From the NCBI RefSeq assembly GCF_058153355.1, contig NZ_CM177019.1: a stretch of DNA of 64,000 nt; one strand, given 5' to 3'. Under the pieces are notes generated by a model. That model was not told the DNA's origin. It made no database searches and saw only the letters and a list, made by a program, of their open reading frames with translations. The position numbers were made by a program, and so were the translations under genes. Below are positions 11,084-54,121 of this stretch, piece after piece. Position 1 is the stretch's first letter. Each line of letters opens with the position of its first letter.

Positions 11084-11449
11084 GTCGACAGGGAGTCAGA
11101 CAACGAAGTGAACATCAGGATGATGACACTTCTGAAGGACACACCAGGAGGGTGTTTCAGGGAAAGGCTTCTGGATGAAGCGAAGAGGATGACGCAGGAC
11201 GCGTTAAAGGACACCTCCAGGATGGAGAATGAGAACCGGTCAGGATGATTCGGTGGGTCAGGAAGGCCAGGGACACTTCAGGATGAAGTATCACATCGGG
11301 GTGGTGTGAGCAGGAAGCAATAGTTCAGGATGAACTATTGGCCGCAAGGCCAGAGGAAAAGTTGTTAAGGATGAGCAGGGAGCAACAAAAGTAGCTGGAA
11401 TGCTGCGAAACGAACCGGGAGCACTGTGAATACAGTGCTCCCTTTTTTT
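11084..11449 (+). ncRNA. csrB: CsrB small RNA (CsrA-sequestering)
   Basis: Begins GTCGACAGGGAGTCAGACAACG; about 18-20 repeated CAGGA(U)G/AGGA motifs at roughly 15-25 nt intervals; ends in a GC hairpin GGGAGCACTGTGAATACAGTGCTCCC followed by T7 (11418-11449). Confidence 0.92.
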
Positions 11450-11494
11450 ATTCCTGCTATCCTTCGCGGCAGTTTTTCTTATTGAGGTTGCTTT

Positions 11495-11824
11495 ATGACC
11501 ACTCATGACCGCGTTCGTCTCCAGTTGCAGGCGCTTGAAGCGTTACTACGTGAACATCAGCACTGGCGAAACGATGAACCCCAGCCGCATCAATTTAACA
11601 GTACCCAACCGTTCTTTATGGACACCATGGAACCACTGGAGTGGTTGCAGTGGGTGCTGATCCCGCGAATGCACGATTTGTTAGATAACAACCAGCCGTT
11701 ACCGGGCGCTTTTGCCGTTGCACCCTATTATGAAATGGCGCTGGCGACGGACCACCCGCAACGCGCGCTTATTCTGGCTGAGCTGGAAAAACTGGATGCT
11801 CTTTTTGCGGATGATGCGAGCTAA
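11495..11824 (+). CDS. yqcC: DUF446-family protein YqcC
   Basis: 109-aa ORF, conserved position upstream of truC with overlapping stop/start. Confidence 0.85.
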   Translation: MTTHDRVRLQLQALEALLREHQHWRNDEPQPHQFNSTQPFFMDTMEPLEWLQWVLIPRMHDLLDNNQPLPGAFAVAPYYEMALATDHPQRALILAELEKLDALFADDAS

Positions 11825-12606
11825 TGCTGGAAATACTCTATCAGGATGAATGGCTGGTTGCGGTAAATAAACCCTCCGGCTGGCTGGTTCACCGCAGCTG
11901 GCTGGATCGCGACGAGAAAGTAGTGGTCATGCAAACCGTGCGTGACCAGATAGGCCAGCATGTTTTTACTGCTCATCGTCTGGACCGACCAACTTCTGGT
12001 GTGTTGTTGATGGGATTATCCGGCGAGGCCGGACGGCTGCTGGCACAACAGTTTGAACAGCACCAAATCCAGAAACGTTACCATGCGATTGTGCGCGGCT
12101 GGTTGATGGAAGAAGCAGTTCTGGATTATCCACTGGTGGAAGAACTGGACAAAATCGCTGATAAATTCGCCCGCGAAGATAAAGGTCCACAGCCAGCGGT
12201 GACACATTATCGCGGTCTGGCGACCGTAGAAATGCCTGTAGCGACCGGACGTTACCCGACTACGCGCTACGGTCTGGTGGAACTGGAGCCGAAAACAGGA
12301 CGCAAGCATCAGCTCCGTCGCCATCTTGCCCACTTGCGCCATCCGATTATTGGCGACAGCAAACATGGTGATTTACGTCAGAATCGTAGCGGTGTTGAAC
12401 ATTTTGGCCTTCAGCGGTTAATGCTGCATGCCAGTCAGTTGTCATTGACACATCCATTTACTGGCGAGCCGCTGACTATTCACGCGGGCCTGGACGACAC
12501 CTGGATGCAGGCGTTATCACAATTTGGCTGGCGTGGTCTGCTTCCTGAAAATGAAAGGGTTGAGTTCAGCGCGCCATCGGGTCAGGATGGAGAGATAAGT
12601 TCCTAA
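11824..12606 (+). CDS. truC: tRNA pseudouridine(65) synthase
   Basis: 260-aa ORF, RluA-family pseudouridine synthase motifs ([12 protein letters not shown]). Confidence 0.9.
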
Positions 12607-12623
12607 TCCAGGGAGAAAACGGT

Positions 12624-13073
12624 ATGGCGGAAATTGGTATTTTTGTGGGCACCATGTACGGAAATTCACTGTTAGTGGCGGAAGAAGCGGAAGCAATTCT
12701 GACCGCGCTGGGCCACAAAGTAACGGTATTTGAAGATCCTGAATTAAGTGACTGGCTGCCCTATCAGGATAAGTTCGTTCTGGTGGTTACGTCCACGACC
12801 GGGCAGGGCGACCTTCCTGATAGCATTGTGCCGCTCTTTCAGGGAATTAAAGATACCCTGGGCTTCCAGCCGAATCTGCGTTATGGCGTGATTGCGCTCG
12901 GCGACAGTAGTTATGTGAATTTCTGCAATGGCGGCAAACAGTTCGATGCCTTGTTGCAGGAACAGAGCGCTCAGCGAGTTGGCGAAATGCTGTTGATTGA
13001 CGCCAGTGATAACCCGGAACCGGAAACGGAATCAAATCCGTGGGTCGAACATTGGGGCACGCTGTTGTCCTGA
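12624..13073 (+). CDS. yqcA: flavodoxin-like protein
   Basis: 149-aa ORF, flavodoxin fold signature ([10 protein letters not shown]... [10 protein letters not shown]). Confidence 0.88.
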
Positions 13074-13492
13074 AAAATTGCCGTTTTAAGCAAACTGAAT
13101 CGAATCTTTTCAGGCAAATGCCAGTAAAAACTGCTTCATAGCGCGGATTTTTACTGGCGTTTGCCTGGAGTCAAGCGATCCATTTCATACTCTTCTTTAT
13201 TTCTTCGTTTTAATCCTTCCTTTCTTGTTCTTGTTTTCATTTCCGTGAAGTGGATTCCACCGTCCAGGGCTAATGCCAAAATCGGGCCTCATTGAACGCA
13301 TTAATGTTGTGTTGTTGCACGGTGAGCCGCTATGGCGCGCTTTTTATACTGTTATTGCCAGATATAAACACGCGCCGTATTCGGCGAACGACCTATAAAA
13401 ACGGCAAAAAATACCCTACGTCACCTCTGATTTCCTGGCGATGTCGCAGTCCAGAGTGAGCGTGGCTAACGCGAATTTTCAGGAGTGCAACA

Positions 13493-14845
13493 ATGAGTTC
13501 TTTAAGTCAGGCTGCGAGCAGTGTGGAAAAACGCACGAATGCTCGTTACTGGATAGTGGTGATGTTGTTTATCGTCACATCCTTCAACTACGGCGACCGC
13601 GCTACGCTCTCTATCGCCGGTTCGGAAATGGCCAAAGATATCGGCCTTGATCCTGTGGGAATGGGCTATGTGTTCTCTGCTTTCTCATGGGCTTATGTTA
13701 TCGGGCAGATCCCTGGTGGCTGGTTGCTGGACCGTTTTGGTTCAAAACGCGTCTACTTCTGGTCGATCTTTATCTGGTCGATGTTTACCTTGCTGCAAGG
13801 CTTCGTCGATATCTTTAGTGGATTCGGCATTATCGTTGCCCTGTTTACGCTGCGCTTCCTGGTCGGGCTTGCTGAAGCGCCATCTTTCCCCGGTAACAGT
13901 CGCATTGTAGCGGCCTGGTTTCCGGCGCAGGAAAGGGGAACTGCAGTGTCTATTTTTAACTCCGCCCAATACTTCGCAACAGTGATCTTCGCGCCGATTA
14001 TGGGCTGGCTGACTCATGAAGTGGGTTGGTCACATGTCTTCTTCTTCATGGGCGGTCTGGGCATTGTCATCAGCTTTATCTGGTTGAAAGTCATCCATGA
14101 GCCAAATCAACATCCGGGCGTAAATCAGAAAGAGCTGGAGTACATCGCCGCGGGTGGTGCGCTGATCAATATGGATCAGCAAAACACCAAAGTTAAAGTA
14201 CCGTTCAGCGTGAAGTGGGGGCAGATCAAACAGCTGCTCGGGTCACGGATGATGATCGGCGTTTATATCGGTCAGTACTGTATCAACGCCCTGACTTACT
14301 TCTTTATTACCTGGTTCCCGGTTTATCTGGTGCAGGCACGCGGGATGTCGATTCTGAAAGCGGGCTTTGTGGCTTCCGTTCCGGCGGTTTGCGGTTTTAT
14401 CGGCGGTGTGCTGGGTGGGATTATTTCCGACTGGCTGATGCGCCGCACGGGATCGCTGAACATTGCGCGTAAAACACCGATCGTAATGGGCATGTTGCTG
14501 TCGATGGTGATGGTGTTCTGCAACTACGTCAACGTTGAGTGGATGATCATCGGCTTTATGGCGCTGGCCTTCTTCGGTAAGGGCATCGGGGCGCTGGGTT
14601 GGGCAGTAATGGCAGATACCGCGCCAAAAGAGATCAGCGGTCTTTCCGGTGGCCTGTTCAATATGTTTGGTAACATTTCCGGTATCGTCACGCCAATCGC
14701 AATTGGTTATATCGTTGGCACGACTGGCTCCTTTAATGGGGCGCTGATTTATGTTGGTGTTCATGCCCTAATCGCGGTACTGAGCTACCTGGTGCTGGTG
14801 GGCGATATCAAGCGTATCGAGCTGAAACCTGTTGCGGGGCAATAA
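13493..14845 (+). CDS. gudP: glucarate/galactarate transporter (MFS)
   Basis: 450-aa MFS ORF; first gene of gudPXD. Confidence 0.92.
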
Positions 14846-14846
14846 G

Positions 14847-16187
14847 ATGGCGACACAATCCAGTCCTGTTATTACTGATATGAAAGTCATTCCGGTGGCC
14901 GGGCATGACAGCATGTTGCTTAATATTGGTGGGGCACATAACGCATATTTCACCCGCAATATTGTGGTACTCACCGATAACGCCGGGCATACCGGTATTG
15001 GTGAAGCGCCCGGCGGAGAGGTGATTTATCAGACACTGGTCGATGCTATTCCGATGGTGCTGGGCCAGGAGGTCGCACGCCTGAATAAAGTGGTTCAGCA
15101 GGTGCATAAAGGTAATCAGGCTGCCGATTTTGATACCTTCGGCAAAGGTGCCTGGACTTTTGAATTGCGCGTTAATGCCGTGGCGGCGCTGGAAGCCGCC
15201 TTGCTTGACCTGCTAGGTAAGGTGCTGAATGTTCCGGTCTGCGAACTGCTAGGGCCAGGCAAGCAACGTGACGCTATTACCGTCCTCGGTTATCTGTTTT
15301 ATATCGGTGATCGGACTAAAACCGATCTTCCTTATCTGGAAAATACGCCGGGCAACCATGAGTGGTATCAGTTGCGCCACCAAAAAGCGATGAACAGCGA
15401 AGCCGTTGTGCGTCTGGCGGAAGCCTCACAGGATCGCTATGGCTTTAAAGATTTCAAACTTAAGGGCGGCGTGTTACCTGGCGAGCAAGAAATCGACACT
15501 GTTCGTGCATTGAAGAAACGCTTCCCGGATGCGCGAATTACCGTTGATCCCAACGGTGCATGGCTGCTTGATGAAGCCATTTCTCTGTGCAAAGGGCTGA
15601 ATGATGTTCTCACCTATGCGGAAGACCCGTGCGGCGCTGAGCAGGGTTTCTCCGGACGTGAAGTGATGGCGGAGTTTCGACGGGCGACCGGATTGCCCGT
15701 CGCGACTAACATGATCGCCACCAACTGGCGCGAAATGGGCCATGCGGTGATGCTCAATGCGGTAGATATTCCACTTGCCGATCCGCATTTCTGGACGCTT
15801 TCCGGTGCAGTCCGCGTGGCGCAACTTTGCGACGACTGGGGGCTGACCTGGGGCTGCCATTCCAATAACCACTTTGATATCTCTCTGGCGATGTTTACCC
15901 ATGTGGGTGCGGCGGCACCGGGTAATCCTACCGCTATCGATACCCACTGGATTTGGCAGGAGGGAGATTGTCGCCTGACCAAAAATCCGCTGGAGATTAA
16001 AAACGGAAAAATTGCCGTTCCTGATGCGCCCGGTCTGGGCGTGGAACTGGACTGGGAGCAGGTACAAAAGGCGCATGAGGCCTATAAACGTCTGCCTGGC
16101 GGTGCGCGTAACGACGCGGGCCCGATGCAGTACCTGATCCCCGGCTGGACCTTTGACCGTAAACGTCCCGTTTTCGGCCGTCATTGA
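14847..16187 (+). CDS. gudX: glucarate dehydratase-related protein (enolase superfamily)
   Basis: ORF 14832-16187 trimmed to MATQSSPV...; paralogue of the following gudD (shared [20 protein letters not shown] blocks). Confidence 0.9.
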
Positions 16188-16207
16188 TTTTGAAAAAGGA
16201 CATAGAT

Positions 16208-17548
16208 ATGAGTTTTCAATTTACGACGCCTGTTGTTACTGAAATGCAGGTCATCCCGGTGGCGGGCCATGACAGTATGCTGATGAATCTGAGTGGTGCA
16301 CACGCACCGTTCTTCACGCGTAATATTGTGATTATCAAAGATAATTCTGGTCACACTGGCGTAGGGGAAATTCCCGGCGGCGAGAAAATCCGTAAAACGC
16401 TGGAAGATGCAATTCCGCTGGTGGTGGGTAAAACGCTGGGTGAATACAAAAACGTTCTGACGCTGGTGCGTAATACATTTGCCGATCGTGATGCCGGCGG
16501 GCGCGGTTTGCAGACATTTGATTTGCGGACCACTATTCATGTGGTTACTGGGATAGAAGCGGCAATGCTGGATCTGCTGGGGCAGCATCTGGGGGTTAAC
16601 GTGGCATCGCTGCTGGGCGATGGTCAACAGCGTAGCGAAGTCGAAATGCTCGGTTATCTGTTCTTCGTCGGTAATCGCAAAGCCACACCGCTGCCGTATC
16701 AAAGCCAGCCGGATGACTCATGCGACTGGTATCGCCTGCGTCACGAAGAAGCGATGACGTCGGATGCGGTGGTGCGCCTGGCGGAAGCGGCATATGAAAA
16801 ATATGGCTTCAACGATTTCAAACTGAAGGGCGGTGTACTGGCCGGAGAAGAAGAAGCCGAATCTATTGTGGCACTGGCGCAACGCTTCCCGCAGGCGCGT
16901 ATTACCCTCGATCCTAACGGTGCCTGGTCGCTGAACGAAGCGATTAAAATCGGTAAATACCTGAAAGGTTCGCTGGCTTATGCAGAAGATCCGTGTGGTG
17001 CGGAGCAAGGTTTCTCCGGGCGTGAAGTGATGGCAGAGTTCCGTCGCGCGACTGGCCTGCCGACCGCAACCAATATGATCGCCACCGACTGGCGGCAGAT
17101 GGGCCATACGCTCTCGTTACAATCCGTTGATATCCCGCTGGCGGATCCGCATTTCTGGACGATGCAAGGTTCGGTACGTGTGGCGCAAATGTGCCATGAA
17201 TTTGGCCTGACCTGGGGGTCACACTCTAACAACCACTTCGATATTTCCCTGGCGATGTTTACCCATGTAGCCGCTGCTGCACCGGGTAAAATTACTGCTA
17301 TTGATACGCACTGGATCTGGCAGGAAGGCAATCAGCGTCTGACCAAAGAACCGTTTGAGATCAAAGGCGGGCTGGTACAGGTGCCGCAAAAACCAGGATT
17401 GGGCGTAGAAATCGATATGGATCAGGTGATGAAAGCCCACGAGCTGTATCAGAAACACGGGCTTGGCGCGCGTGACGATGCAATGGGAATGCAGTATCTG
17501 ATTCCTGGCTGGACGTTCGATAACAAGCGTCCGTGCATGGTGCGTTAA
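16208..17548 (+). CDS. gudD: D-glucarate dehydratase
   Basis: ORF 16184-17548 trimmed to the Met at 16208 ([10 protein letters not shown]...); enolase-superfamily sequence. Confidence 0.92.
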
Positions 17549-17556
17549 GACAGAAA

Positions 17557-17590
17557 ACCAAAACCGGCTCTGTCAGGAGCCGGTTTTTAC
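17557..17590. terminator. bidirectional intrinsic terminator between gudD and barA
   Basis: AAAACCGGCTC-TGTCAG-GAGCCGGTTTTT hairpin flanked by A-run and T-run between convergent genes. Confidence 0.75.
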
Positions 17591-17605
17591 TGGATAACAT
17601 ATTTA

Positions 17606-20362
17606 TTACCCAAGAATTTTGCTGGCTTCGCGCGCTACATTATCCATCTCGTCCAACAGTTCCAGCAGCTCCGGCTCCAAATCTTCTTCTTTAGTACCGC
17701 TGCGTAGCTGTTGTTCGATCAGTTGGCAGAGATTCTTCATACGCGGCACACCGCTATAGCCGCAACTGCCATGCAGTTTATGAATCAAATCAACCAGGCC
17801 TTCCGGGTTTTCTCCAACCAGCTGTTCCTCAACTTTGTTGCGAACTTCAGGCAGGAAATCGAGTAACATTTGCAGCATATCGCGCGCTAAATCGGTTTTT
17901 CCTGCTGCCTGGCGTAGTGCCAGTTGCCAGTCGAGGGTCGCATTCGGGTTCACCACAATTTCATTGACTTCGGGGGTCACGACGCGAGAGGAAATACCGC
18001 TGCCAGGCTTGTAGCGCAACAGCAAATTATGCAATCGTTCTTCTTCAATCGGTTTCGCCAGATAATCGCTCATCCCTGCGCCAAGCAGCTTCTCTTTTTG
18101 CCCGGCCATTGCATGCGCCGTTACCGCGATAACCGGCGTTTGTTGCTGATGGGGGAGCTGGTGGATGAGTTCGCAGGCCCGAATACCGTCCATGTCCGGC
18201 ATTTGAATATCCATTAAGATCAAATCGAACGGCATCTGTTTCGCCCGTTCAACCGCCTGATGCCCGCTATCGCAAAGTTCCACATGTTGCACCATATCTT
18301 CCAGCAATGCGCCGATAAGTTTCAGGTTAGCGGGGTTGTCATCAATCGCCATGACTGTCATTGCCAGCTTACTTTCATCGGTTACAGGCAAAAGCGTGTT
18401 TTGTTTGTGATGACAAAATTCCGTCAGGGCAGGGAACAGGCGCGTAGGTGTTAATGGTTTCAGCAGACACGCGCCGATACCATCTTGCTTAAGTTTTTCA
18501 GCATTGACTTGTGCATGGCAAGGAAGTGCCAGCATCAGAAAATCGGTCATCGATACCGCTTTCGCTAATCGCTCATGTTGCATTGTTAGCGGCTCGCGGA
18601 AGGTCACCGCAATGCCTAATAACATCATGTCGTAATGCGCGGGAGGCAGCGCGGAGAACGTTGGGCTATAAACCACTTCCAGCGGCGTTTCACTTAAAAT
18701 ATCCAGCGTGCATTGCGCTGCTGCGGAGTTTGGTTCGACATAGGCCAGGCGCTTGCCGGCGAGGCACTGGGTGGATGGCCCTTCGATAATAATGTTCGGA
18801 TTCAGATCGAGATTAATGTGGAACCAGAAAGTTGAACCGCGATTCGGCTGGCTATGGAACGAAATATCGCCGCCCATTTCATTAACCAGTTTTTGTGTAA
18901 TCACCAGCCCCAGCCCGGTGCCACCATGACGGCGGGAAATACTGGCATCAGCCTGTCGGAAGGCCTGGAATAAGCGCGATTGATCGCGTTCAGGAATACC
19001 AATGCCGGTATCCCGAATCTGCACTTCAATCTGCACTTTGGTATTACTCAGCGCACGTTTTTCTACCAGAATATCAATGTTGCCATTCTCGGTGAATTTA
19101 ATTGCATTCCCTACCAGGTTAGTGATGATTTGCTGTAATCGCAGTGGGTCGCCAATTACGTTATCGGGCACGTCGCTCTTAATATTGAGCGTCAGTTCCA
19201 GCCCTTTATCGTGAGAAGAATGTGCCAGCAGGGTAACGACTTCATCCAGCGTGCTGCGTAGTGGGAATGGAATACTTTCCAGAATCAGCTTACCTGCTTC
19301 CAGTTTCGAGAAGTCGAGAACATCATTAATAATTGCCAGCAAATTATTTGCCGAACGTTCAATCGTATTCAGGTGGTCGCGCTGCGTTGGCGTTAATTCT
19401 GTTTTCAGCGTCAGGCGGGTAAAGCCAATAACGCCATTGAGCGGAGTTCGCAGCTCGTGGGACATATTTGCCAGAAACTCAGACTTAATCCGCGCCGCTT
19501 CCTGGGCACGTTTTTTCGCCAGATCCAACTCAACGTTCTGAATTTCCATCTGCTCCAGCGTTTCACGCAGATCGGACGTCGCCTGGTCGATATTGTGTTG
19601 CATCTCTTCGTGATAAGCAGCCAGCGACATTGCCATCGAGTTGATGCCATTTTTCAGCATATCCAGCTCGCCGAGCATAAATCCTTCCACTCGGCTGTCG
19701 AGTTGTCCGCGACGGATACGGTCGACGGTATTTACCATGTTGCGAATTGGACCGGTTACATCACGCATGAGTCGCCAGCCAAAAATAAGCGCAATACCGA
19801 TACAAAACAGCATCATCACGCTGGAAATAAAGATCTCTTTATATTGCTGCAAGCGAACCGATTTAAGATCCAGCTCAAGCGCAATATATCCCAACATATT
19901 TTGACTATTTTTGGCATCGCTACTGGGCGATTCGTCGGGGGAGTAACTCTCAGAAATAATCGGCGTGCGGAGGATCATAATATCGCCGTCACGAGTGACA
20001 GTGAGCTGGCGAGGAAACGGCACGTTGCTGCCGAGCTGCATTGATGAGGGATCAAGATGAAAATTGGAGGTGACAAAGAGTCGGTTATTTTCATCATAAA
20101 CCGAAATCGCGCGAACAATATCGGAATGGCGACGATGCAGCACGCTTATTAACTGACCGATAGATTCGCGATTTTGCAGGCTCATGCCATATTCAGTAGA
20201 AACTGCAAGCGGCTCAATAATGCTGGCTCCGGCATCTTCCAGTTGACGCTGCAAGTCGTTATAGCGATGCACAACGAAAAAGATACTCAGCAATAAACCA
20301 ATAAGGACGGTCGGTGCCAGGATCAGAATCATCATGCGTGCGCGCAGGCTGTAGTTGGTCAT
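17606..20362 (-). CDS. barA: hybrid sensor histidine kinase BarA
   Basis: 918-aa ORF with HAMP, HisKA ([11 protein letters not shown]), receiver and HPt regions. Confidence 0.95.
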
Positions 20363-34070: not shown

Positions 34071-34353
34071 CAGGTAATGTGAGTAGAGGTTGTGACGATT
34101 AAGCCTCTACTCTTACATCAATCTGTAAATGCCCCATTTTCTCCTCTCTTTGGTCCGACTCCGCAATTTCGTATATTTTTCAATAGTGTTAATGTTTTGT
34201 CCAAGTAAAAATTACCAGACATTCGGAGGTTTTTAACTAACATTTATAGTGGGTAAATTGGTGGGATACGCTTAACCTTAAAAAATCAATATAAACAATA
34301 GGTTATGATTGGTGTTTGTCTTATCGGATGAACTAATTTAAATGGAGTACTAA

Positions 34354-34617
34354 ATGGCTACTTTAATGGAAAAAGATTCTCTCCTGAATGGCGTAAGTCA
34401 AAATATTGCATTTTTATCAAATGTATCAGAAATGATTTACAAGTCCCAGAATGAAGAATTACAAAAGGAGATATATGAATTGGTGAGTTATAGAGACTAT
34501 TTATATTCAACAGGCCATGAACTCGTTGATTTCAAGGAAGGAGTATTGCGATTTCAGCAAGTTAGAAAAAAATACATGCAGGATCTAAAAGCGCTAGGTT
34601 ATCCCGCAACCAATTGA
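34354..34617 (+). CDS. hypothetical small protein (87 aa) in an AT-rich islet
   Basis: ORF with GGAG Shine-Dalgarno 7 nt upstream; surrounding 34071-34797 is far more AT-rich than the flanks; no family recognised. Confidence 0.45.
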   Translation: MATLMEKDSLLNGVSQNIAFLSNVSEMIYKSQNEELQKEIYELVSYRDYLYSTGHELVDFKEGVLRFQQVRKKYMQDLKALGYPATN

Positions 34618-34797
34618 TAAATATGTCTTTATATTAATTTTAGGATGTGGATAACCTGCTGAAATTTATATTAAAAATGAAATAAAAATATTAAATTCAT
34701 ATCATGCTTGCGTTTTGTTCTCGATAACGCGTAATTTTGTTGAATGCTTTCTCCTGTGAATGCAAAACCAGGCAGTTTCCCGCCCGGCCTTCCTCAC

Positions 34798-49869: not shown

Positions 49870-50604
49870 ATGTCCAAACTCGATCTAAATGCCCTGAACG
49901 AACTGCCGAAGGTAGATCGCATTCTGGCGCTGGCGGAAACTAACGCCGAGCTTGAAAAACTGGATGCTGAAGGCCGCGTTGCCTGGGCGCTGGATAATCT
50001 GCCCGGTGAATATGTGCTTTCTTCCAGCTTCGGTATCCAGGCGGCGGTTAGCCTGCATCTGGTGAATCAGATTCGCCCGGATATTCCGGTGATCCTCACC
50101 GATACCGGTTATCTGTTTCCGGAAACCTACCGCTTTATTGACGAGTTAACGGACAAACTCAAGCTCAACCTGAAAGTGTACCGCGCTACCGAAAGCGCCG
50201 CCTGGCAGGAAGCACGCTACGGCAAACTGTGGGAGCAGGGCGTTGAAGGCATTGAAAAGTACAACGATATCAACAAAGTCGAACCGATGAACCGGGCGCT
50301 GAAAGAACTGAACGCACAAACGTGGTTTGCTGGCCTGCGCCGTGAACAATCCGGCAGCCGCGCTAATTTACCGGTGTTGGCAATTCAGCGTGGCGTATTT
50401 AAAGTGCTGCCGATTATCGACTGGGATAACCGAACTATTTATCAGTATCTGCAAAAACATGGCCTGAAATATCACCCATTATGGGACGAAGGATATTTAT
50501 CGGTTGGTGATACCCATACAACCCGTAAATGGGAACCTGGTATGGCGGAAGAAGAAACGCGTTTCTTTGGCTTAAAAAGGGAATGTGGGCTGCACGAAGG
50601 GTAA
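49870..50604 (+). CDS. cysH: phosphoadenosine phosphosulfate reductase
   Basis: ORF 49708-50604 trimmed to [10 protein letters not shown]... (244 aa) with GAGGAA Shine-Dalgarno. Confidence 0.95.
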
Positions 50605-50868
50605 ATATTGCCGGATAAAATAAACGCCTCTGTCAGAAATGATGGGGGCGTTTTTATTTTGCGAGCCGCATTCCGGCATTTAAACGTGAATATAGCAGGG
50701 GAAATCAACAGTTATAGAATGGCGTCGGGTGCTTGAGGCTGTCTGGTGTTGAGCATTCGCGAGGTTCCAGATGGACAAAAGCCCCAGGCGATATATCTAT
50801 CAACCTGAGGCTTACGTTCGAACCCAAACAATTCGAATGTTAGTCTCTTCTTTGCAGGGAGGCAAGAC

Positions 50869-51021
50869 ATGCTGACAAAATATGCCCTTGTGGCAATCAT
50901 CGTACTGTGTTGTACAGTACTGGGATTCACGCTGATGGTAGGCGACTCGTTGTGTGAGTTGAGTATCAGAGAACGTGGTATGGAGTTTAAGGCAGTTCTC
51001 GCTTACGAACCGAAGAAGTAG
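50869..51021 (+). CDS. hokX: Hok/Gef-family small membrane toxin (50 aa)
   Basis: Not in the ORF track (under 60 aa). Translation [50 protein letters not shown] shows the Hok pattern (N-terminal TM helix, conserved LCE...R..G..E..A...AYE). Followed by GC hairpin CGCGGGGGTAAAACCCCGCG and a T-run. Locus name from my recollection of hokX/sokX between cysH and cas3 in K-12. Confidence 0.7.
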
Positions 51022-51259
51022 CCACCACGCGGGGGTAAAACCCCGCGTATTGAATTGTGATGGTTTGGTCTCCTGCACCCTTTTTTTCATTTATATTGTT
51101 TTTGTGAATATTATGCCTGTGTTTATTATTTATATATATCACAGATGAAAATCATTGAATTATTCATAATGTAAATATTTTATTGAACGATATATATCAC
51201 AGATAATTTTTAATATATGCGTAAATATCCTTTAAGTTTTACTGAAGGATAAAAACATT

Positions 51260-52911
51260 GTGACTTTCTTTGATTTCTGGGGAAAAACCCGACGTGGCGA
51301 GAAAGAGGGTGGCGACGATTATCACCTTCTTTGCTGGCATTCGCTGGATGTAGCCGCGATAGGCTATTTAATGGTCAAAAACAACTGTTTCGGGCTGGCT
51401 GACTATTTTCGTCAATTAGGTTTCGCTGACACGGATCAGGCAGCACAATTTTTCGCCTGGTTGTTGTGCTGGCACGATACTGGAAAATTTGCCCGCTCAT
51501 TTCAGCAACTTTACCTGCACCCACAACTCAAGGTTCCGGAAGGCGCAAGAAAGAATTACGAAAAGATCTCTCATTCAACGCTGGGTTACTGGTTGTGGCA
51601 TCATTATTTAATTGAATGTGAAGAGTTGCTTCCTTCATCTTCACTCTCTTTGCGCAAACTTAAACGGGTAATAGATATGTGGATGCCCGTGACGACCGGG
51701 CATCATGGTCGGCCTCCTGACCGTATCGATGAACTGGACAACTTTCTACCTGAAGACAAAGCTGCCGCACGAGATTTTCTCCTTGAAATCAAGGTACTGT
51801 TTCCGCTCATCGAGATCCCTACATTCTGGGATGATGACGAGGGCGTTGAACTTATAAAACATCTTTCCTGGTATATATCTGCAACCGTCGTACTCGCAGA
51901 CTGGACGGGATCGTCAACGCGGTTTTTTCCACGCGTCGCACATGTAATGGATATTAAAGATTACTGGCAGAATGCTTTAGCTCAGGCTCAAAACGCATTA
52001 ACCGTCTTTCCTCCAAAAGCAGAAACCGCACCTTTCACTGGAATTAACACGCTGTTTCCTTTTATTGAGAACCCAACACCGTTACAGCAAAAGGTGCTGG
52101 ATCTGGATATCAGCCAGCCAGGACCGCAGTTGTTTATTCTGGAAGATGTGACTGGCGCAGGTAAAACAGAAGCGGCGCTTATCTTGGCGCACAGGTTGAT
52201 GTCTGCGGGGAAAGCACAGGGTTTGTTTTTTGGCCTGCCAACAATGGCAACGGCCAATGCCATGTACGATAGGCTGGTAAAAACCTAGCTTGCTTTCTAT
52301 TCGCCACAATCCCGCCCCAGCCTGGTGCTGGCACACAGCGCTCGTTCGCTAATGGATCGCTTTAACGCATCGCTGTGGTCTGGTGATTTTGTGGGGTCAG
52401 AAGAACCGGATGAACAAGCGTTCAGTCAGGGATGTGCGGCCTGGTTTGCTGACAGTAACAAGAAGGCGTTGCTGGCTGAAATTGGCGTCGGCACGCTGGA
52501 TCAGGCGATGATGGCGGTGATGCCGTTCAAACATAATAATCTGCGGCTTCTGGGGCTGAGTAACAAAATCCTGCTAGCCGATGAGATCCACGCCTGTGAC
52601 GCTTATATGTCGTGCATTCTTGAAGGGCTGATCGAGCGGCAGGCGCGTGGCGGAAACAGCGTTATTTTGCTTTCTGCTACGTTGTCTCAACAGCAGCGTG
52701 ACAAACTCGTCGCCGCCTTTGCGCGTGGTGCAGAGGGCCAGCAAGAAGCTCCGTTGCTGGAAAAAGATGATTATCCCTGGCTGACGCATGTCACGAAATC
52801 CGATGTGCATTCGCACCGGGTAGCGACGCGCAAAGACGTTGAGCGCAGCGTGAGTGTGGGTTGGCTTCATAGCGAACAAGAGTGTATTGCGCGTATCGAA
52901 TCGGCGGTAAG
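51260..52911 (+). pseudogene. cas3: cas3 remnant (type I-E HD nuclease/helicase), in-frame TAG at 52286-52288 and 3' truncated at about codon 550
   Basis: Track ORFs 51260-52288 and 52325-52936 are in the same frame, separated by one amber codon; HD motif region (LLCWHSLDVAAIGY...HDTGKF) and Walker A (DVTGAGKTEA) present; reading frame runs directly into CRISPR repeat 1. Confidence 0.85.
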
Positions 52912-53062
52912 GTGTTCCCCGCGCCAGCGGGGATAAACCGTCGACAATGGATAAGTTGACTTCAGGTCTGGGGAGTTCCCCGCGCTAGCGGGAATAAACC
53001 GTGCAGTACGCCTGATGACAAACCAAGCATCGGGAGTTCCCCCGCGTCAGCGGGGGAACTCC
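52912..53062 (+). CRISPR. orphan type I-E CRISPR mini-array (3 repeats, 2 spacers)
   Basis: Repeat 1 52912-52940 GTGTTCCCCGCGCCAGCGGGGATAAACCG; spacer 52941-52972; repeat 2 52973-53001 (2 mismatches); spacer 53002-53033; degenerate terminal repeat from 53034. Spacers are 32 bp; repeat matches the E. coli I-E consensus. Confidence 0.9.
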
Positions 53063-53083
53063 CAGCTCCCATTTTCAAACGCC

Positions 53084-54121
53084 TCATGACGCCTTCGCCA
53101 GTTCCTTCACTAGCGGTAGCATTATCCGCATAACGTCACGGCAGCGACGTTCTATTCTTCCAGGAAGCGCCTTATCAATATGCTGTTGATTATCAAGCCT
53201 TACATCATGCCAGCTATTTCCCGCCGGGAAGGCCGGTGTTTTTGCGCGTTGCTGATAACCATCCTTATTTCCAAGATTCCAGTTGGTCGCCTCCACCGAA
53301 AGTACCGCAATACCGGCTTTGTCGAAAACTTCTGCATCGTTACAACACCCAGTGCCTTTCGGATAGTTTTTATTCAAACCTGGATTTGTTGTCGCTGCAA
53401 TCCCATGATTATGCGCAATTGCCAGCGCTCGATCACGGGTTAATTTCCTGACAGCCTCTGGTGTATTTACACCACTATTAAAATACAATTTATCGCCAAC
53501 AATTAAGTTATCGAGATTAATCACCAGCAGCGTATTTTTCTTTTCAGTATCGCTCATGCGCTTGAGTAAATTCTCAGCGCCTAATTTCCCTTCTTCTTCT
53601 CCACTGGTTGCCACAAAACGAATACCATACTCGGTAGGCGTATTTTTCAGACGTTCAGCCAGTTCCAGCATGACACCTAAACCTGCGGCGTTATCATCCA
53701 TTCCTTGTAATGTCAGCCCGCCGAGATTGGCATCGGCGTCGGCATCGCTCAGTGGAGCGTACGTATCAAGATGCGCCATAATAATGATCTGCTGCGGCGC
53801 TTTGCCTTCATGAGCGGCAATCACCGTACTTCCCGTCACGTTGTGCCAGTTTTTGCGGTTATCGCGGGCGGTGTAAATATATCGGCTATTAAATGTCCGA
53901 ATATCACTGCGATAACCCATCTGTTGAAACTGTTGGCGAATATAATCGGCAGATAACATTTCTGCAGGAGTTCCGGTCATGCGTCCCGGAAAGAAAGTAG
54001 CAATATGTCGTGCCTGTGTATTAGCAAAATCACCAGGTTTAGGTGACGAGGCGTGTACGGGGAGAATAAAGCATACGCCGAGCGCCAGGGCAGCGGTACG
54101 GTGGCGCAATGCGGAAAACAT
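53084..54121 (-). CDS. iap: alkaline phosphatase isozyme conversion aminopeptidase
   Basis: 345-aa ORF with signal peptide, recognised as Iap (M28 peptidase). Confidence 0.92.
   Translation of the reverse strand: MFSALRHRTAALALGVCFILPVHASSPKPGDFANTQARHIATFFPGRMTGTPAEMLSADYIRQQFQQMGYRSDIRTFNSRYIYTARDNRKNWHNVTGSTVIAAHEGKAPQQIIIMAHLDTYAPLSDADADANLGGLTLQGMDDNAAGLGVMLELAERLKNTPTEYGIRFVATSGEEEGKLGAENLLKRMSDTEKKNTLLVINLDNLIVGDKLYFNSGVNTPEAVRKLTRDRALAIAHNHGIAATTNPGLNKNYPKGTGCCNDAEVFDKAGIAVLSVEATNWNLGNKDGYQQRAKTPAFPAGNSWHDVRLDNQQHIDKALPGRIERRCRDVMRIMLPLVKELAKAS

Follow-up and report, generated by a model that had tools for sequence, protein, structure and literature searches.

How did a type I-E CRISPR-Cas locus come to consist of a piece of cas3 that runs directly into a CRISPR repeat, and what fixed the point at which the two are joined? 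The question is raised by the cysH-iap interval of a 64,000-nt stretch of contig NZ_CM177019.1 (assembly GCF_058153355.1), hereafter called the window.

The cas3 remnant and its array

The left flank of the region is cysH, which ends at 50604. It is followed, on the plus strand as are all features up to iap, by an intact hok/sok type I toxin-antitoxin module: a sok antisense RNA region at 50727-50884 (Rfam RF01794, 111.5 bits for a gathering score of 59), which is a marker of the E1 arrangement, overlaps an intact 50-aa hok-family toxin ORF at 50869-51021. The identical product is on record with PF01848; the NCBIfam HokA-like match was under its cut-off. Lying directly 5' of the cas3 remnant, hok/sok may fix the left limit of viable cas-region deletions because its loss would be toxic. 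The stretch between hok/sok and the GTG start of cas3 is AT-rich. It contains a sigma-70-like site (TTGTGA-16-TATTAT, 51102-51129), a possible cas3 promoter, but such sites are not above chance (3 against 3.8 expected in shuffles).

The original prediction, made from the sequence alone, was that a cas3 fragment of about 550 codons stands as the only cas gene between cysH and iap, interrupted by an in-frame TAG. Both points were borne out. The ORF that starts with GTG at 51260 stays in frame to 52911, i.e. over 551 codons, and corresponds to nt 44-1694 of the 2,700-nt KO11FL gene; its one internal stop, the TAG at 52286-52288, is TGG (Trp) in intact alleles. The Cas3 HD nuclease domain is complete (NCBIfam TIGR01596, 89.8 bits versus a cut-off of 43.45) and is followed by the first half of the helicase core, the NCBIfam profile of which was matched only over positions 2-190 of 358. 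With 551 of about 885-899 codons and an internal TAG, the remnant falls short of an intact cas3, which codes for the HD domain, a complete SF2 helicase and a C-terminal domain. The GTG at 51260 is the usable start because a T run at 51234-51237, with four T in the window and three in KO11FL, shifts the ATG used by NCBI's annotation pipeline as the E1 cas3 start. The same T4 run explains why the otherwise full-length cas3 of N96 is annotated as 'frameshifted'.

K-12 had been proposed as the reference for defining the deletion endpoints, and turned out to be unsuitable. Megablast of the window cas3 against K-12 cas3 gave no similarity; the K-12 gene, which is of the E2 variant, does not align, and K-12 was dropped in favour of KO11FL and N96. 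The window cas3 is 98.8-98.9% identical to those of N96 and 2020CK-00188 and 92.4% to that of KO11FL. It is an allele of the E1 lineage (cas-EO, O157 type; O157/E. coli W type), and the GTG-type repeats and the adjacent hok/sok agree with this assignment: the E1 or cas-EO variant is linked to both (Almendros 2014, PMC3903273; Diez-Villasenor 2013, PMC3737337), and hok/sok is tied to every arrangement but E2 (Almendros 2014, PMC3903273).

The array has the composition expected of type I-E, with 29-nt repeats of the GTGTTCCCCGCGCCAGCGGGGATAAACCG type, 32-nt spacers and a degenerate last repeat; the repeats are spaced by 61 and 62 nt with 0 and 3 mismatches, and the pattern gave 2 matches versus 0 in 100 shuffles. 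Repeat 1 (GTGTTCCCCGCGCCAGCGGGGATAAACCG, 52912-52940) is identical to the E1 consensus. It is followed by spacer 1 (52941-52972), by repeat 2 (52973-53001), which has 3 mismatches to repeat 1 and is present as the same variant in GF131, and by spacer 2 (53002-53033), the oldest one; two 32-bp spacers and a degenerate terminal repeat were thus as foreseen. The terminal repeat (53034-53063) forms a perfect 14-bp hairpin or palindrome (fold z-score -5.96) and may serve to terminate transcription between the array and iap (53084-54121, minus strand), a convergent gene and the conserved right flank. Both spacers are genuine old spacers, common to other E. coli arrays: they are the last two of the eleven of GF131, spacer 1 being the penultimate one, and spacer 2 is also the final spacer of 2020CK-00188. 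Over 33 of 34 nt, spacer 1 is matched by SSU5-like phage-plasmids from Salmonella, Enterobacter, Yersinia and Klebsiella, in a DUF6651 gene. No additional I-E repeat was found in the entire 64 kb with up to 8 mismatches allowed. The ygcE-queE intergenic region is the usual E. coli site of the second I-E array (CRISPR2.2-3); in the window this AT-rich region (34071-34797) likewise shows no I-E repeat with the same 8 mismatches allowed. The residual array may still be transcribed; a transcript could not be processed without Cas6e.

The cas3 reading frame runs into the first repeat at 52912, as the original prediction stated. The last cas3 base (52911, nt 1694) directly precedes G1, the first base of the repeat (52912), with nothing in between. 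No AT-rich leader with an IHF site is present 5' of the first repeat, the 25 nt before it being cas3 coding sequence where intact E1 loci read ...AAACAGATACGTATGCTTAGT, and neither a leader nor casA-E, cas1 or cas2 was found between cysH and iap. The absence of Cascade, cas1-cas2 and leader supports the view that one deletion led from mid-cas3 into the array and that the locus can neither acquire spacers nor interfere on its own. Microhomology had been proposed as something to look for around 52905-52915; there is none (0 nt), as the base that follows in intact cas3 is C or T, and the repeat begins with G. Losses of cas-E are ascribed mainly to IS recombination (Almendros 2014, PMC3903273), and IS421, IS1, IS3 and IS91 are frequent in the region. 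An IS-mediated deletion, as proposed for most such losses in E. coli and Shigella, is effectively refuted here, and we give it hardly any weight: neither an IS nor an IS end or a target duplication is present in the interval, and cas3 directly abuts the repeat.

The window's junction is absent from all 5,426 complete E. coli genomes, so that the search for lineages sharing it came back empty in this set, and a scan of one representative genome per species for the exact junction gave no match. The identical locus is known only from three Logan assemblies. In one of them, SRR8656992, the 5.47 kb retrieved across the locus were identical to the window; two other contigs encode the same 342-aa remnant ORF. 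The 203-aa junction ORF is not on protein record, because gene callers picked a different start. The flanking 11 kb share no more than 99.1% identity with any complete E. coli genome, and therefore come from an E. coli or Shigella lineage that has been sampled sparsely. The gene of the CsrB small RNA at 11093-11452 (Rfam RF00018, 377 bits) confirms that the window is colinear with the csrB-to-rpoS side of the K-12 chromosome.

We are thus nearly certain that the locus is a non-functional relic of an E1 type I-E locus, without a role in immunity. A single deletion of at least 7 kb took the last 1,006 nt of cas3, the genes from casA to cas2, the leader and whatever newer units there were, joining cas3 nt 1694 to repeat base 1; the TGG to TAG change came later, and recombination between repeats may have shortened the array since then.

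Deletion endpoints in E1 loci

Complete E. coli genomes were searched for the 5' part of cas3 close to iap and one representative was opened per size class; extra cases were found via truncated Cas3 proteins. As the census was anchored on the 5' part of cas3, the restriction of left ends to this gene is only moderately supported. Among 22 independent IS-free deletions in E1 loci, 10 (the window included) join cas3 to exactly G1. Placed against the intact KO11FL operon, their left ends are at cas3 nt 1196, 1470, 1486, 1555, 1569, 1671/2, 1694 (window), 2046/7, 2168/9 and 2459, single positions being possibly a base off in some classes as the reference alleles are 92-99% identical; the right end is G1 of GTGTTCCCCGCG. 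The S. flexneri joint, at cas3 nt 1091, has one additional G ahead of the repeat. In the Salmonella remnant, located beside sopD and cysH, a complete repeat starts 4 nt (ACAC) further on, i.e. the joint is at or within 4 nt of G1; the ACAC may belong to the Salmonella allele itself or be filler, the nearest intact allele compared being only 92% identical.

The right ends of 11 other deletions are elsewhere. Seven of these start in cas3, at nt 135 (to cas1e), 1765 (to cas7e), 2037 (to cas2e), 2038 (to cas5e), 2140 (to cas7e), 2156 (to cas6e) and 2285 (to cas7e); the others are casA:424 to cas2e, casB:106 to cas6e, cas5e:86 to cas1e and, in EC596, casA:1165 to the interior of a repeat. The two groups differ in the homology at their joints. 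Microhomology of 1-4 nt was measured in 10 of the 11 non-G1 deletions (the eleventh, EC596, has an ambiguous joint), while the G1 joints, scored against the leader end TTAGT, gave 0, 1, 2, 1, 1, 1, 0, 0, 1 and 0 nt, a mean of 0.7 that corresponds to chance level (Mann-Whitney p = 4e-4). If ends were uniformly distributed, the probability of finding at least 10 of 22 right ends at the first repeat base would be 2e-21; conditioned on ends inside the array, it would still be 9e-17. From this precision and the microhomology contrast we conclude that the exact joints are a separate class, not made by base pairing.

The same figures weigh on another account of the window joint, namely ordinary illegitimate recombination (replication slippage or microhomology joining) with an end that falls at the repeat border by chance, possibly favoured by a hairpin. 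The 11 other deletions in the same operon are of the illegitimate type, the repeats are palindromes and the lagging strand is copied from the top strand. However, precision to the base in 10 independent events (P about 1e-16 to 1e-21) and microhomology no higher than chance are hard to reconcile with it; the hairpin stem begins at position 6 of the repeat, not at position 1, and E2 arrays have the same stem and show no fusions in the genomes covered. We therefore see such an origin as quite improbable.

The exact joints have other features in common. Their polarity is constant, the 3' end of the cas3 sense strand meeting the 5' end of the repeat, and every one of these events deletes cas1-cas2 and the leader, in keeping with a self-deletion that can happen only once. 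In two strains, lineage-specific spacers come first, in agreement with a joint formed at the leader-proximal repeat: right after the joint, 2020CK-00188 has a single spacer of its own and then spacer 4, shared with N96, where three N96-specific spacers precede it; in STEC384, eight unique spacers stand before a block in common with strain 1303. Array length varies behind one and the same joint: strains with the junction at cas3 nt 2047 have 13, 6 or 3 repeats, so that arrays lose units once the fusion has formed while the joint stays. The window array may thus have been longer at the time of the deletion, and shrinkage can account for its two spacers. For this reason only one part of the predicted event can be maintained, the junction from mid-cas3 to the array; that it had reached the distal end of the array is not assertable.

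A few further observations concern the ends and their surroundings. Three independent E. coli deletions have left ends at E1 cas3 nt 2037, 2038 and 2047, and the Salmonella break is about 15-20 nt from the homologous spot; this cluster may be a hotspot of DNA ends. Right ends cluster at cas2e nt 61-66, with left ends at cas3:2037, cas3:1557 and casA:424; at least two of these are independent and some may be secondary derivatives. Chi sites (GCTGGTGG) occur in the KO11FL operon (piece 11617-20274) at cas5e:593, casA:1026 and cas3:2531 of the top strand, with none on the bottom strand; the K-12 operon has a single one, near the cas3 start. The STEC384 array seemed to start one unit before that of KO11FL, which was rejected as a repeat-driven alignment after spacer-by-spacer comparison; the lineage-specific leading spacers described above are a weaker argument that took its place. 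E1 cas3 is present in 2,777 complete E. coli genomes, 352 of which retain less than 80% of it, and in-frame Cas3-Cas1, Cas3-Cas7, Cas3-Cas6 and Cas3-CasA fusion ORFs are found in the protein database; internal operon deletions are therefore far commoner than the classes opened. Among K-12-type (E2) loci, no cas3-repeat fusion was found in about 1,180 genomes, and one IS-mediated case was seen; these genomes are very clonal, which makes them uninformative as a replicate set.

Possible origins of the exact joints

Spacer integration by Cas1-Cas2 is a transesterification: the incoming 3' end becomes attached to the repeat top strand at its 5' end, which frees the leader. The bond made first, on the leader side, connects the non-PAM 3'-OH of the prespacer with the first repeat, at the 5' end that borders the leader (PMC10011333; PMC8616872). 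The ten exact joints have this very form, with the phosphodiester 5' of repeat base 1 and the incoming 3' end on the repeat top strand. We consider it quite possible, if slightly short of probable, that the locus owes the window joint to its own integrase, Cas1-Cas2. The donor would be a chromosomal 3' end within cas3, on the sense (top) strand, which could arise at a nick, by resection or from a nascent strand that had stalled. Once it had been transferred to the leader-repeat phosphodiester, replication would yield a chromosome that has lost everything between the two points, cas1-cas2 included. In a variant of this scheme, a long cas3 fragment would be integrated and homologous recombination with the resident gene would follow. 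Either route would be a self-inactivating event leaving an orphan array. Duplicated cas3 fragments, the expected intermediates of the long-fragment variant, accounted for only 8-9 additional places among about 2,750 genomes.

An exact joint at G1 is likewise predicted if a cas3-derived self-spacer is first inserted in direct orientation and the DNA between the 32-bp spacer and its source is then deleted by recombination. This was what we first suspected. Spacers matching cas genes have been proposed as a cause of cas loss for E. coli I-F orphan arrays (PMC8616872; PMC2886076). The suspicion was weakened by two results. Firstly, the E1 acquisition motif AWG, which accompanies about 80% of spacers (PMC3737337), is present 33-35 nt 5' of only 1 of the 10 exact joints (P = 4e-6). 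The window has CAA there and AAG one base out of register; GF131 has ATG at -35 to -33. In an active system, PAM-less self-spacers would survive, and selection against PAM-bearing ones could rescue the self-spacer model. Secondly, stretches of at least 28 nt from E1 cas3 were not found outside cas3 or its remnants anywhere in the 5,426 complete genomes, 2,777 of which gave matches, at 2,786 places in all. The model also gives no reason why left ends avoid casA-cas7e, and a 32-bp homology is a poor recombination substrate. On balance, a self-spacer origin is unlikely, without being far-fetched, and it is the chief competitor of the integrase.

The position of the left ends brings in autoimmune targeting, in which Cascade-Cas3 would hit the chromosome near the locus, Cas3 or RecBCD would resect leftwards and the ends would be rejoined. 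From a top-strand PAM, Cas3 moves off along that strand in the 3'-to-5' direction and would thereby generate receding top-strand 3' ends. Furthermore, all ten G1 left ends are upstream of the Chi site at cas3 nt 2531, one of the three top-strand sites of the operon, and deletions caused by self-targeting are known in other species. Resection and end joining do not, however, account for a right end fixed at one base, a search for resident spacers against the locus came back empty, and the Chi sites in casA and cas5e should give like clusters, which were not seen among the classes opened. We judge this scenario improbable.

Several properties of the exact joints were counted in favour of the integrase: their recurrence, their precision at G1, their polarity, the lack of base pairing, the leading spacers and the loss of cas1-cas2. 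Other points were counted against it. We know of no experiment in which Cas1-Cas2 used a chromosomal 3' end as donor. The repeat at the window joint precedes the two oldest spacers of GF131, which requires either an internal repeat as target or later shrinkage of the array. Lastly, E2 loci share the palindrome and the chemistry and show no fusions, although their genomes are clonal. As a tentative generalization, held a little less firmly than the integrase origin of the window joint, we propose that E1 type I-E systems of E. coli, Shigella and probably Salmonella may recurrently delete their own cas operon by strand transfer at the repeat border, most plausibly by Cas1-Cas2 acting on a chromosomal 3' end in cas3, and that this may be a general route to orphan arrays.

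Relation to known systems

Loss of cas genes with the array kept is common in enterobacteria and has so far been put down to insertion sequences or random deletion. About half of the IS-free deletions opened here (10 of 22) end, with no microhomology, at the base cut by the integrase. Should the integrase be the cause, adaptation would bring with it an inherent danger that the CRISPR system is destroyed, which would bear on I-E silencing in E. coli, on the frequency of orphan arrays and on the way Cas1-Cas2 handles non-canonical DNA ends.

The closest biochemical parallel is the leader-side half-site integration carried out by Cas1-Cas2-IHF during I-E adaptation: phosphodiester and polarity are the same as in the ten joints, and neither PAM nor homology is needed at that end. 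The proposed event, which is hypothetical, would differ by its donor, a chromosomal 3' end instead of a 33-nt prespacer, and by its product, a deletion of about 7 kb instead of a new spacer. The IS-driven loss or replacement of cas-E (Almendros et al. 2014, PMC3903273) resembles the window in that the cas-E genes are gone and part of the array is kept, and the E1/E2 and hok/sok link matches; it differs in that no IS takes part at the window's locus. The anti-cas spacers of E. coli I-F orphan arrays (Almendros 2016, cited in PMC8616872) also combine cas-derived sequence beside a repeat with loss of the cas genes. In the window, by contrast, the cas3 sequence is continuous with the gene remnant and has neither a repeat 5' of it nor an acquisition motif.

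Loci of the same kind are already on record. I-E loci reduced to a cas3 pseudogene are known from Shigella flexneri and Salmonella (Touchon & Rocha 2010, PMC2886076), in a study where junction positions were not analysed. Like the window locus, they have only a cas3 remnant and a short array between cysH and iap, and the S. flexneri remnant was confirmed to abut the repeat; its joint (cas3 nt 1091 plus one extra G, versus nt 1694 and an exact border) marks a separate event. Because of this other breakpoint, an initial suspicion that the window itself comes from S. flexneri was dropped. In the aEPEC O156:H8 strain 13E0767, a deletion was reported from inside cas3 (Gly683 codon) to the CRISPR2 repeat boundary (Geue et al. 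2017, PMC5359238). It corresponds to our census class at nt 2046/7 and thus shares with the window a deletion from cas3 to the repeat boundary; its breakpoint is another one, its array has six spacers, and it was a remark on a single strain, without recurrence or mechanism. Taken for itself, then, the window locus is ordinary, a new allele of a decay that has already been described. A recurrent, nucleotide-precise joint between cas3 and the repeat is not described as a pattern in the searchable literature, and this recurrence suggests a self-deletion mechanism that can be tested.
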